Below, in pieces: positions 21,955 through 24,392 of a stretch of DNA of 64,000 nucleotides. Below the pieces are notes generated by a model. It saw only the letters and a program-made list of their open reading frames with translations, searched no databases and was not told the origin of the DNA. The stretch lies in NCBI RefSeq assembly GCF_016026235.1, contig NZ_CP065613.1, one strand, 5' to 3'. This DNA comes from Escherichia coli. GTDB taxonomy: Bacteria > Pseudomonadota > Gammaproteobacteria > Enterobacterales > Enterobacteriaceae. The translations under genes and the position numbers were made by a program. Each line of letters begins with the position of its first letter. The stretch's first letter is position 1.

Positions 21955-22767
21955 TTACCCAAACGCCTCTACAATCACCATCGCCGCCCGTTCTCCCGCT
22001 TTGCCATCCATAAACGCATCGCAATAATGATGGCGAATTTCCGCCAGCTTCGTCTGCACCGCCCCCCAGTCAAACGCCTCTGACAGCAAATAACGCAGTT
22101 CCGCGACATTATGAGCCACCGGCAATATTTCGCGAATCCGCTGGTCGGCGCTCTCTGCCGTGGAGTAACTTTTCTCACCGTCGAGCAAATCATTCATGCC
22201 CGGAAAGTCGAGCAGGATCACCCGCTTATCAACGTGGATAGCATCGAAAATAAAACCGCTGTTATCGGTCAGCACGTAATCGGCCTTTGCCAGTAGCGCC
22301 AGCGTGTGGCGGGCGGAGTCGGTGCGCTGTTTTAAGTGCCTGCGCGCCAGGGCCAGCGATGCGGCTTCTTCCGGGCGTGAGCAGGTGCCGTGGTGCAGTT
22401 TGCAAATCAGGTTCACATCACCGCTTAAGCGGCCCAATTTTTCTGCCCAGTGGGGCAGGGAGCTTAGTGCGCCAAACGTTGGGGCGTAGAGCACCGTAGG
22501 TTTACGGTCATCCAGTTCGATATTTCTCGGCAACGCGCGATCAAACGTGCCGTTATGCCAGGCGTCGAAGCGCGGGTTGCCGACCACTTTTGCGCTGCCG
22601 AAATGTTCCAGCGCCTGCTGGCTGTAGTGGCTGTAACACAAAATGCGCTGATAAAAACGGTTCCAGTCGGCGTGGTTCCACGTCTCTTTAGCTAAGCCGT
22701 ACATAGCGCGGACGTTCACCGCTGCCAGGCCATTGAGTATGGCGTGTGGTAGGGGCTGACCAGGCAT
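21955..22767 (-). CDS. CDP-glycerol glycerophosphotransferase (TagB/TagF-family) catalytic domain, C-terminal ORF of an apparently split gene
   Basis: Motifs GNPRFD, VLYAPTFG and DYVLTDNSGFIFDAIHVDKRVILL match the TagF family; overlaps the upstream ORF by 52 nt in another frame. Confidence 0.7.
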   Translation of the reverse strand: MPGQPLPHAILNGLAAVNVRAMYGLAKETWNHADWNRFYQRILCYSHYSQQALEHFGSAKVVGNPRFDAWHNGTFDRALPRNIELDDRKPTVLYAPTFGALSSLPHWAEKLGRLSGDVNLICKLHHGTCSRPEEAASLALARRHLKQRTDSARHTLALLAKADYVLTDNSGFIFDAIHVDKRVILLDFPGMNDLLDGEKSYSTAESADQRIREILPVAHNVAELRYLLSEAFDWGAVQTKLAEIRHHYCDAFMDGKAGERAAMVIVEAFG

Positions 22768-24392
22768 TTCACTCGCAGGCCGTGTGCCTGCATTGCCGAT
22801 AAGTGCATTCCTTTAAGCTGCGGGTCGTCGATGCTTTTTAGCGTTGCCAGCATCTCATCAAGAAACGGTTTAAACACGCGGTCGTTGATCACCAGCGTGC
22901 AGCTCTGCCCCTGCGCCTGTAGCGCGGTGATGATTGGGCGGTAGAGCGCGTAGTGGAAGGAGGTTTCCATAAAAAAGCCGATGGTGTCGGCGATGGGTAA
23001 TGCGGATGGCTTTGTGGCTACGGGTAACTTATTGAAATAGTGACCAATGTTGTCAGTCGCTTTTTTCTCTATATCGCTAAAGCCCGGTCGCTGATAACTA
23101 AGGCTCGGATAACAGGCCAGCCATTTGTCGGCGCGTAGCAGCGGCTGCCAGCAGGCTTCCAGCGAGTGCTCATCGTTGCTCATCTGCTGCGCCAGTTGCG
23201 GGTAGTAGCGGCTGTTCACCAGATAAGCGCATACCTTGCGGCAGTCCCGCGCGTGCACCAGCCCCGGCAAACTTTTTAGCATCGTTCCCTGCGAAATTTC
23301 GCCGCCAAGGATCATCACCTGCCAGGGAATTTTCGCCAGGCTCGCCAGCAGCGTGTTCAGCACCTGAATATGTTTCTCCTGCTTGAGAATAACCGCGTCA
23401 TCTTCCAGCAGCAGGTAGTTTTGCCAGCTGTGCTGTTGCGCCAGGCGCAGCGCCTGCAAGTGTGAATGGCGGCGGCCCCGTTGACCGTTTTCATCTTCAT
23501 TGGCGGCAAGGCGGGTGATCTTCTCGGGTGGAATATGCAGCAGTGCCAGTTCTTCACGGATCTGCTGTAAGCGATCCGGGCGTTTATCCAGATTCACGAT
23601 GACCACCTGATCAATCGCCTGATGGTTGATTGCCTGGTGATGAGTGGCGTTATGCAGACTCAGATAAGCGTTGCGTAGCAGCGGATCGCTGACGATGTCG
23701 CTCAGTTCGGCGTTTACAGGCGTGCTGGCCCCGAGAATAAAGTCTTTATCAAAGGTGTTGTGGCTGTGCGAGATACACAGAATCGTGCGCTCGCCGGGCA
23801 ACTGCAGCGGGTTAACGCTGAAATTGTTGGTGAAACTTTTCTCTTCGCTCAGATTGCAATCGTCATCGTAACGGTGCTTTTTCAGGTAGTTACAGTGATA
23901 GCAAAAGGTGCCGTTGAGGATGTTATGCGGGCCAAAGCTGCGGCTTTGAAAGATACGGTTGATATGGCTGTACCAGATGGGGATCTGGTCAGAACCGGAG
24001 ATGAGCGCCCGGTGTTTTTGCATTATGGCGATGGTGTAAGAGATTTTATCTGCCGGGTAGTAGTCGTCGTCATCCATGCAGAGGATATATTCGCCGCGCG
24101 CCAGTTCGTTGAGCATATTGCGTTTTTTGCCCAGCGGCAGTTTTTCCGGGTGATGGATGTAGCGGATGTTGAAGGACTCCGGCGTGCCATTGGTCAGGCG
24201 GTCGATGATGTGTTGATGGCTTTGCGGGGAGTCGTCGAGGATGACCAGTTCGCGGTGATCTGCCGGGTAGTCCTGATAGCGGTACATGTAGAGCAGGTAC
24301 GGCAGGAATGTGGCACGGTTCCAAGTTGGCGTGACGACGCTCACGAAGGGTTTTTCGCGGTGAGTAGCGAGTGTTTTGATGATGGTTTGCAT
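22716..24392 (-). CDS. multidomain glycosyltransferase (GT2-like N-domain, GT25-like middle domain, start of TagF-like domain)
   Basis: GT2 signature VSVVTPTWNRATFL...ILDDS...CMDDDDYY; middle VIVNLDKRPDRL (GT25-like); C-terminal part continues as the TagF-like domain of the next ORF. Confidence 0.7.
   Translation of the reverse strand: MQTIIKTLATHREKPFVSVVTPTWNRATFLPYLLYMYRYQDYPADHRELVILDDSPQSHQHIIDRLTNGTPESFNIRYIHHPEKLPLGKKRNMLNELARGEYILCMDDDDYYPADKISYTIAIMQKHRALISGSDQIPIWYSHINRIFQSRSFGPHNILNGTFCYHCNYLKKHRYDDDCNLSEEKSFTNNFSVNPLQLPGERTILCISHSHNTFDKDFILGASTPVNAELSDIVSDPLLRNAYLSLHNATHHQAINHQAIDQVVIVNLDKRPDRLQQIREELALLHIPPEKITRLAANEDENGQRGRRHSHLQALRLAQQHSWQNYLLLEDDAVILKQEKHIQVLNTLLASLAKIPWQVMILGGEISQGTMLKSLPGLVHARDCRKVCAYLVNSRYYPQLAQQMSNDEHSLEACWQPLLRADKWLACYPSLSYQRPGFSDIEKKATDNIGHYFNKLPVATKPSALPIADTIGFFMETSFHYALYRPIITALQAQGQSCTLVINDRVFKPFLDEMLATLKSIDDPQLKGMHLSAMQAHGLRVKCLVSPYHTPYSMAWQR

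Follow-up and report, generated by a model that had tools for sequence, protein, structure and literature searches.

A 64,000-nucleotide stretch of an Escherichia coli genome (referred to here as the window) contains two overlapping open reading frames (ORFs) in a lateral flagellar locus, which raises the question of whether these are two genes or the remains of one, and, if one gene has been broken, whether the break is real and what was lost with it. The initial annotation had proposed a single ancestral gene of roughly 810 codons, with a GT2/GT25/TagF-like make-up, that was split by a single-base frameshift, and had left the choice between a real inactivating mutation and a homopolymer sequencing error. 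We are highly confident that the 558-aa and 270-aa ORFs are halves of one frameshifted gene, and that they arose through the genuine, vertically inherited loss of one C from the CCC triplet encoding Pro at codon 551. The features on which this account draws are collected in Table 1.

Table 1. Coordinates, strand and supporting evidence for the transferase pseudogene and neighbouring features in the window
Feature	Position	Strand	Evidence
Three-domain transferase pseudogene, whole	21955..24392	-	Full-length alignment to single-ORF orthologs L001 and L002
5' fragment ORF, 558 aa	22716..24392	-	ORF listing and three-frame translation; exact product public as STL99655.1
3' fragment ORF, 270 aa	21955..22767	-	ORF listing and translation; exact product public as STL99658.1
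1-nt deletion site	22741..22742	-	Only gap column in alignments with L001, L002 and FDAARGOS_943
TagD-like cytidylyltransferase gene, 131 aa, intact relative to FDAARGOS_943	19869..20264	+	PF01467 match; annotated adenylyltransferase/cytidyltransferase
ISEc60 (IS4-like) copy inside the adjacent FliB/LafV-like lysine-N-methylase gene	25091..26386	+	Sister-strain comparison
Lysine-N-methylase gene fragments	24441-25092 and about 26386-26676	-	Located either side of ISEc60
Scar of the Flag-2 hook gene flgE/lfgE deletion	29903..29937	+	Comparison with E. coli SMS-3-5

Two reading frames of one ancestral gene

The ORF listing and three-frame translation agree with the frame break as it was first described, with the 558-aa ORF ending at 22716 and the 270-aa ORF starting at 22767 in the -1 frame relative to it, so that the two overlap by 52 nt when the upstream stop codon is counted in. 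The pair is not a chance juxtaposition, because the two ORFs taken together align end to end to single E. coli genes of 812-814 aa, and over 2.4 kb the alignment contains exactly one gap column. This column places the indel within the ORF overlap, where the + strand now reads GG and ancestrally read GGG; on the minus strand the sequence is ACG CC/A TAC (the slash marking the missing base) against an ancestral ACG CCC ATA, which encodes Thr-Pro-Ile at residues 550-552. The 558-aa ORF encodes the GT2 domain, the middle domain and the opening ~90 residues of the TagF-like domain, and finishes with seven out-of-frame residues (YSMAWQR) and a stop. The 270-aa ORF begins with nine residues (MPGQPLPHA) that are out of frame relative to the ancestral gene, and from ILNGL onwards encodes the remainder of the TagF-like domain, the GNPRFD motif included; upstream of its ATG the only Shine-Dalgarno-like element is a weak GAG. 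Insertion of a single C at alignment column 1656 restores a continuous ORF of 812 codons with no internal stops, and both the proposed single-base frameshift and the one-base correction suggested as a check on it are thereby borne out.

Of 5426 complete E. coli genomes, 1277 contain an ortholog with 92-95% identity, and the three intact E. coli orthologs examined are each annotated as a single CDS (814 aa in L001, 812 aa in L002 and 814 aa in SMS-3-5). Single-ORF homologs of 807-857 aa are also found in E. albertii, E. ruysiae, Citrobacter, Enterobacter, Atlantibacter, Leminorella and Plesiomonas; full-length single-ORF homologs span at least eight genera, with identities down to 38%, and have no indel at the break site. 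The nearest relative of the window is E. coli FDAARGOS_943, which is 99.94% identical with three indels over 64 kb. At the lesion this strain has CCC and SPYHTPILNGL is translated without interruption, the gene being continuous to residue 676, where it has an ISEc60 insertion of its own. A search of the public protein collection for an exact match to the repaired 812-aa protein came back empty, and the ancestral state is therefore taken from the IS-interrupted FDAARGOS_943 allele together with the more distant orthologs. The same gene has been inactivated independently in two sister lineages, by a 1-nt deletion here and by ISEc60 in FDAARGOS_943, and the deletion arose after the FDAARGOS_943 split but predates the diversification of the clade's sampled isolates. 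A two-ORF arrangement shared by other strains had been named in advance as evidence against a frameshift mutation; it was confined to this one clone, whose members are at least 99.9% identical.

Flag-2 setting and modules of the enzyme

The gene is cargo of variable region 1 (VR1) of the Flag-2 (lateral flagella) locus and lies between lfiJ/fliJ and lfgN/flgN, VR1 being defined as the region between cluster 1, ending with lfiJ/fliJ, and cluster 2, beginning with lfgN/flgN (De Maayer et al. 2020, PMC6993521). The passages of that paper dealing with VR1 report pseudogenes, IS insertions, GT2 glycosyltransferases, TagD and LafV in this region. The gene order in the window, namely fliI, fliJ, the cytidylyltransferase gene, two hypothetical genes, the glycosyltransferase gene, the methylase gene, flgN, flgM and flgA, is the same in the orthologous loci. 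The TagD-like enzyme is presumed to supply CDP-glycerol for the TagF-like domain. Further along the locus the hook gene has been reduced to a scar, in which REP-like filler joins the end of flgD to the final ~68 nt of flgE; the intact flgE of SMS-3-5 is 1203 nt long (L013 19744-20946), and the deletion is also present in FDAARGOS_943. A non-coli Escherichia was considered as the source of the DNA, given that the Flag-2 region shares only 92-95% identity with other E. coli, and was rejected on finding that the housekeeping flank from dinB to proA shares 98.7-98.9% identity with ordinary E. coli; the window therefore comes from an E. coli whose Flag-2 allele is divergent.

The ancestral product is an 812-aa three-module enzyme made up, from N to C terminus, of a GT2, a GT25-like and a TagF-like GT-B module. 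The GT2 and TagF-like parts of the make-up first proposed are upheld, with the GT25 part being weaker for this protein. The GT2 family (PF00535) matches residues 18-131 (E 3.9e-18, 66.4 bits, cut-off 23.3) and is recognised in 29/29 homologs, among which D107, D108 and D109 of the DXD-type motif region are invariant. For the middle domain the GT25 family (PF01755) gives a sub-threshold, partial match of 15 bits (E 0.023, cut-off 24) over the first ~40 profile positions only, and matches 4 of the 29 homologs (best E 1.1e-6). In the C-terminal domain PF04464 matches residues 603-726 (E 9e-5), corresponding to the C-terminal Rossmann half, scores 22.0 bits on the isolated domain, just below its gathering cut-off of 22.1, and matches 12 homologs (best E 3e-8). 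A sequence search of the PDB with the full protein gave GT2 matches only, and the TagF-like character of the C-terminal domain became apparent only with a domain profile, which matches TarL (8VA1, E 0.0016), and with a structure model followed by a fold search. The AlphaFold model of this domain (pLDDT 91.2, pTM 0.90) has a predicted GT-B fold for which the top Foldseek PDB matches are TagF structures (3L7I-3L7M; E 3.5e-11 to 1e-10, TMq 0.65-0.68), although UDP-GlcNAc 2-epimerases are nearly equal to TagF in fold score.

As had been proposed, the break falls inside the TagF-like domain, and more precisely in its N-terminal half, ~90 residues in and between model strands E80-85 and E96-102. The catalytic histidines of TagF are H444 and H584. 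In the ancestral product an invariant His480 (repaired numbering) is located in the beta1-alpha1 loop, and the break parts it from the Pfam-matched half containing GNPRFD.

The deletion brings the ribosome into frame with a stop after seven codons, giving a truncated product in which the GT-B module is reduced to strands 1-4 of its N-terminal Rossmann half, His480 included; the remainder of this half is lost, as is all of the donor-binding half. The 270-aa ORF is a by-product, its ATG lying in the ancestral -1 frame and having no good ribosome-binding site. In the intact enzyme the C-terminal module would use CDP-glycerol from the TagD-like neighbour to decorate the lateral flagellin glycan, and we infer that the function of the gene has been lost in this allele. 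The hook gene flgE had already been lost when the frameshift arose, and selection on the transferase gene was probably relaxed because the locus lacked it by then. The frameshift is ordinary gene decay in a decaying Flag-2 locus.

Alternative readings of the split

The alternative that survives best, although we think it unlikely, accepts the mutation as real and the loss as partial, with the 558-aa product still active as a GT2 plus GT25-like enzyme, only the glycerol-phosphate step lost and the glycan altered. Both N-terminal domains are untouched by the break at residue 551, and the product could keep its GT2 and middle-domain activity because two-domain proteins of ~460-490 aa occur naturally among the homologs; these are 457-496 aa long in Enterobacter, Lelliottia, Erwinia, Pseudescherichia and Paramixta and align to repaired residues 1 to ~460. 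However, the orphan piece of the Rossmann half, some ~90 residues, may misfold, and because flgE is deleted in the clade no lateral filament is expected to be there to receive the glycan. Relaxed selection on the whole module also fits the IS in the same gene of FDAARGOS_943 and the IS-split methylase gene. Considerably less probable is an extension of this reading in which the 558-aa product is a live stand-alone GT2 plus GT25-like enzyme that has converged on the two-domain homologs, a one-step remodelling of a surface glycan, with the enzyme perhaps directed at a target other than the hook-less lateral flagellum. If this were true the mutation would represent the loss of glycerol-phosphate decoration, not simple decay.

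There is very little chance that the break is a homopolymer miscall in a long-read assembly of a genome with an intact 812-codon gene. The lesion does lie within a short C run, and the ISEc60 copy in the window has an A7 shortened to A6 that is not shared by the NCTC assembly of the same lineage, so that not every homopolymer length in the window can be trusted; the C run, however, is only 3 nt long, and the comparison with FDAARGOS_943 shows few indels of any kind. The 558/270 pair is present in all seven loci shown (L006-L012, from seven samples), which come from an NCTC PacBio assembly, two draft assemblies and the Logan assemblies of four separate runs (SRR1118464, ERR3331069, SRR13627083 and SRR23545530), and the short-read contigs among them (L007-L012) end at or just inside the ISEc60 copy. 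These loci represent at least four SNP haplotypes, 0-3 SNPs apart in the region, and the deletion is common to all; three of the haplotypes come from Illumina-era drafts or Logan contigs, and the independence of the assemblies is judged from accession series and from the haplotypes themselves. Altogether 14 public contigs, derived from different projects and sequencing runs and including short-read drafts, carry the exact 558-aa product, and it is because of this recurrence, together with the comparison of the seven loci, that sequencing error is ruled out. Of the two origins initially left side by side, the real inactivating mutation therefore stands.

A functional split, whether by programmed -1 ribosomal frameshifting, transcriptional slippage or a phase-variable switch, is just as remote, and is ruled out by a missing heptamer, a tract that is short and not conserved, and a lack of length polymorphism. 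The -1 frame of the downstream ORF and the 52-nt overlap superficially resemble programmed frameshift sites, but when the overlap and the 33 nt preceding it were scanned codon by codon, no slippery heptamer of the form X XXY YYZ was present in the zero frame, and a C run of 2-3 nt is far short of the tract lengths known to cause slippage. No tract is conserved at the lesion, since other E. coli carry CCT GCG there, and the orthologs outside the clone are all single ORFs. Phase-variable contingency loci typically contain homopolymer tracts of at least 7 nt; the tract here is CC (ancestrally CCC) and has the same length in 7 of 7 sampled loci, the clone members sampled sharing one state with no ON/OFF mixture.

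Relation to known systems and significance

In its position, its TagD and FliB/LafV neighbours and its GT2 domain the gene is like the Flag-2 VR1 GT2 glycosyltransferases of Enterobacterales covered in the VR1 passages of De Maayer et al. (PMC6993521), and it differs from them in being a pseudogene split by a 1-nt deletion. Those passages list the glycosyltransferase families separately, and describe neither the three-module fusion nor this frameshift. The second comparison is with the TagF/TarL teichoic-acid polymerases (CDP-glycerol/CDP-ribitol phosphotransferases), with which the C-terminal 350 residues share a GT-B fold in the structure model; a presumed CDP-glycerol-forming enzyme is encoded close to the transferase gene. 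Here the identity is ~15%, the activity is predicted, and the domain forms one polypeptide with two glycosyltransferase modules, in a flagellar locus of a Gram-negative bacterium.

The decay itself has parallels in Escherichia, for which the relevant sections of PMC6993521 report the lfhA-lafU deletion, a frameshift that inactivates Flag-2 in strain 042, and IS insertions. The present locus likewise combines a point frameshift, IS insertions and a gene deletion, but the frameshift described here affects an accessory (modification) gene, not a structural one.

For annotation, STL99655.1 and STL99658.1, which were deposited as separate 'putative glycosyltransferases', should be treated as one pseudogene, and the 1-nt deletion provides a clean clade marker of this E. 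coli lineage. The locus is a small, well-resolved case of erosion in a silent secondary flagellar system, the two sister lineages having each disrupted this accessory gene in their own way once the hook gene was gone. It is the intact orthologs and not this allele, with their GT2, GT25-like and TagF-like modules encoded beside TagD, that offer a reasonable lead on the possible glycerol-phosphate decoration of lateral flagellin.

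A gene divided by a one-nucleotide deletion

The minus-strand glycosyltransferase gene at 21955..24392 is present in the window as two ORFs, and their coordinates and 52-nt overlap (22716-22767), as given in the initial annotation, agree with the ORF listing and three-frame translation, which place the 270-aa ORF in the -1 frame relative to the 558-aa ORF. The upstream frame terminates in KCLVSPYHTPYSMAWQR and a stop, and the downstream frame is open from MPGQPLPHAILNGLAAVNVRAMYGLA onwards. Alignment with E. coli orthologue genes (MAFFT) gave one internal gap column only in the 2437 nt of this gene in the window, which reads CACACG-CCATACTC where FDAARGOS_943 (NZ_CP065615.1), its nearest relative, has CACACGCCCATACTC and other E. 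coli have CACACGCCTGCGCTC, the leftover GG being located at 22741-22742 on the plus strand. Insertion of one C at this gap, the check originally proposed, yields an 812-aa ORF without internal stop (the repaired numbering used below), and so upholds the proposal of a single-base frameshift in an ancestral gene of approximately 810 codons.

Features of the split gene, its ancestral product and the neighbouring locus
Feature	Position	Strand	Basis or remarks
5' ORF, 558 aa, glycosyltransferase gene	24392..22716	-	ORF listing
3' ORF, 270 aa, glycosyltransferase gene	22767..21955	-	ORF listing
N-terminal GT2	residues 18-131		Pfam, E 3.9e-18
Middle GT25-like			PF01755, E 0.023, sub-threshold and partial
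C-terminal TagF-like	residues 603-726		PF04464: 19.5 bits whole protein, 22.0 isolated domain, cut-off 22.1
flgE/lfgE hook gene deletion	29903-29937		last ~68 nt left; between flgD (ends 29904) and flgF (starts 30006)
ISEc60 (IS4-like)	25091-26386		splits FliB/LafV-like lysine-N-methylase gene

By megablast with the region, 1279 of 5426 complete E. coli genomes have the gene, FDAARGOS_943 being the sole 99.8% match and the other 1278 being 90-95% identical. In XH990, GPEC1186 and SMS-3-5 the orthologue is a single CDS of 812-814 aa, annotated as 'glycosyltransferase', and FDAARGOS_943 reads through the site unbroken (SPYHTPILNGLAAV...) for 676 codons before its own ISEc60 insertion. Homologs of 807-857 aa from E. 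coli, E. ruysiae, E. albertii, E. fergusonii, Citrobacter, Enterobacter, Dryocola, Leminorella, Atlantibacter and Plesiomonas are all single ORFs, at identities down to 38%, and align without an indel around the break. In other E. coli, different C-terminal fragments are called as separate proteins (for example 338 aa on 103 contigs, and 312, 227 and 210 aa), so the gene may be broken at further positions in other lineages, although some fragments are contig-end truncations.

The initial annotation allowed for either a real mutation or a sequencing error, and it is the former that stands, since the same deletion recurs in separate public assemblies. The window assembly is not noisy, with 99.94% identity to FDAARGOS_943 across 64 kb (39 SNPs and three 1-nt indels). 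Proteins identical to the 558-aa and 270-aa products are public as STL99655.1 and STL99658.1, both named 'putative glysosyltransferase [Escherichia coli]'; the former is found on 14 contigs, and both ORFs occur in all seven places listed (NCTC assembly GCA_900449985.1, drafts GCA_000805835.1 and GCA_902503985.1, and Logan assemblies SRR23545530, SRR13627083, ERR3331069 and SRR1118464). Compared with the window, these loci show 0-3 substitutions, and they comprise at least four haplotypes, told apart at 24324 (synonymous, inside the ORF, with the FDAARGOS_943 allele shared by loci L008, L010 and L011), 24418, 24832, 25409 and the IS A-run. All of them have CC at the deletion site and FDAARGOS_943 has CCC, so the deletion is older than the diversification of the clade and younger than its split from FDAARGOS_943. 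With CC in at least four haplotypes of separate assemblies, as compared in their assembled sequences, an artefact is excluded for practical purposes.

A recoding site was also rejected, as the zero-frame codons of the overlap (AAA TGC CTG GTC AGC CCC TAC CAC ACG CCA TAC TCA ATG GCC TGG CAG CGG TGA) lack an X XXY YYZ heptamer, the C run, 2-3 nt in length, is as a tract not conserved in other E. coli, and the 807-857-aa homologs are all single ORFs. A weak GAG alone precedes the ATG of the 270-aa ORF.

Domains of the ancestral enzyme

Among 29 homologs, Pfam matches were obtained to PF00535 in every case, to PF04464 in 12 (best E 3e-8) and to PF01755 in four (best E 1.1e-6), and the C-terminal domain profile matched TarL (ribitol-phosphate polymerase, 8VA1; E 0.0016). 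Repaired residues 462-812 gave a confident AlphaFold2 model (pLDDT 91.2, pTM 0.90) with two Rossmann-like halves. Its top matches in the PDB are to TagF, a teichoic-acid polymerase (3L7I-3L7M, E 3.5e-11 to 1e-9, TMq at most 0.68), followed by UDP-GlcNAc 2-epimerases and TarL. The break, at repaired residues 551/552 (model residues 90/91), falls between strands E80-85 and E96-102 within the N-terminal half of this GT-B domain, and parts the invariant His480, located in the beta1-alpha1 loop, from the C-terminal half, which carries the Pfam match and GNPRFD. Judged from the sequence, TagF-like activity has most likely been lost through the frameshift, and probably the whole enzyme. Natural two-domain homologs of ~460-490 aa stop at repaired residue ~457-461, making the third module a separable addition, and by analogy with these, GT2 and middle-domain activity could persist in the 558-aa product.

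Erosion of the Flag-2 locus

The gene is flanked by fliI-fliJ-cytidylyltransferase and, on its opposite side, by lysine-N-methylase-flgN-flgM-flgA. By the definition of De Maayer et al. 2020 (PMC6993521), this position is variable region 1 (VR1) of Flag-2, the lateral flagella locus. In VR1 these authors describe GT2 glycosyltransferases, enzymes of the TagB/TagD type and LafV (FliB-like) methylases, and in Flag-2 frequent IS insertions and gene losses. Two hypothetical VR1 genes (273 aa and 187 aa; 20276-21629, minus strand) lie downstream of the glycosyltransferase gene; neither protein has a precomputed Pfam match, and among the annotations seen no homolog of the 273-aa protein is named.

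The flgE deletion, common to the window and FDAARGOS_943 (the gene is 1203 nt in SMS-3-5), has a REP-like 35-nt filler (GCCTGATGCGCTTCGCTTATCAGGCC) at its junction, 29903-29937. A rayT REP-associated transposase gene is located at 6105-6602. Relative to both FDAARGOS_943 copies, the window ISEc60 has a CAG->TAG nonsense mutation at 25409 and A7->A6 at 26057-26063, which break its transposase; the NCTC assembly, which belongs to this lineage, reads A7, so A6 may reflect either a difference between strains or a homopolymer error in the window. FDAARGOS_943 has independently acquired ISEc60 in the same glycosyltransferase gene (equivalent to window 22384-22393), IS5 between the two hypothetical VR1 genes (~21024), ISEc60 in flgH (32089-32100) and, at a Dcm site in flgL (35822), a nonsense mutation, CAG->TAG. 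Flag-2 genes annotated as intact in FDAARGOS_943 are also intact in the window, except flgE and the methylase gene, flgH lying outside this comparison, being split in the reference. The lesions of the two sister strains amount to parallel erosion of one Flag-2 locus.

Elsewhere, paoD (minus strand, 58150-57193), encoding the chaperone for insertion of the molybdenum cofactor into the aldehyde oxidoreductase PaoABC, is frameshifted by a 1-nt insertion at 57661 relative to FDAARGOS_943, outside a homopolymer; paoA, paoB and paoC are intact. Transitions make up 33 of the 39 SNPs across the whole window; 12 fall on the inner C of CCGG (1.2% of positions) and three on that of CCWGG (Dcm), a pattern resembling 5-methylcytosine deamination and suggestive of an HpaII-type methyltransferase in the window's lineage. 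The A/T alleles are mostly those of the window at 1-34000 and of FDAARGOS_943 at 34000-64000.

The simplest history, ordered by parsimony, is that the common ancestor lost the Flag-2 hook gene, which would have left the locus non-functional and eroding separately in each lineage, the frameshift being one such event. As no lateral filament is expected without a hook, any activity retained by the 558-aa product would have no obvious phenotypic relevance. The split gene is thus ordinary pseudogene formation, an event of a kind already known, in a locus known for decay.
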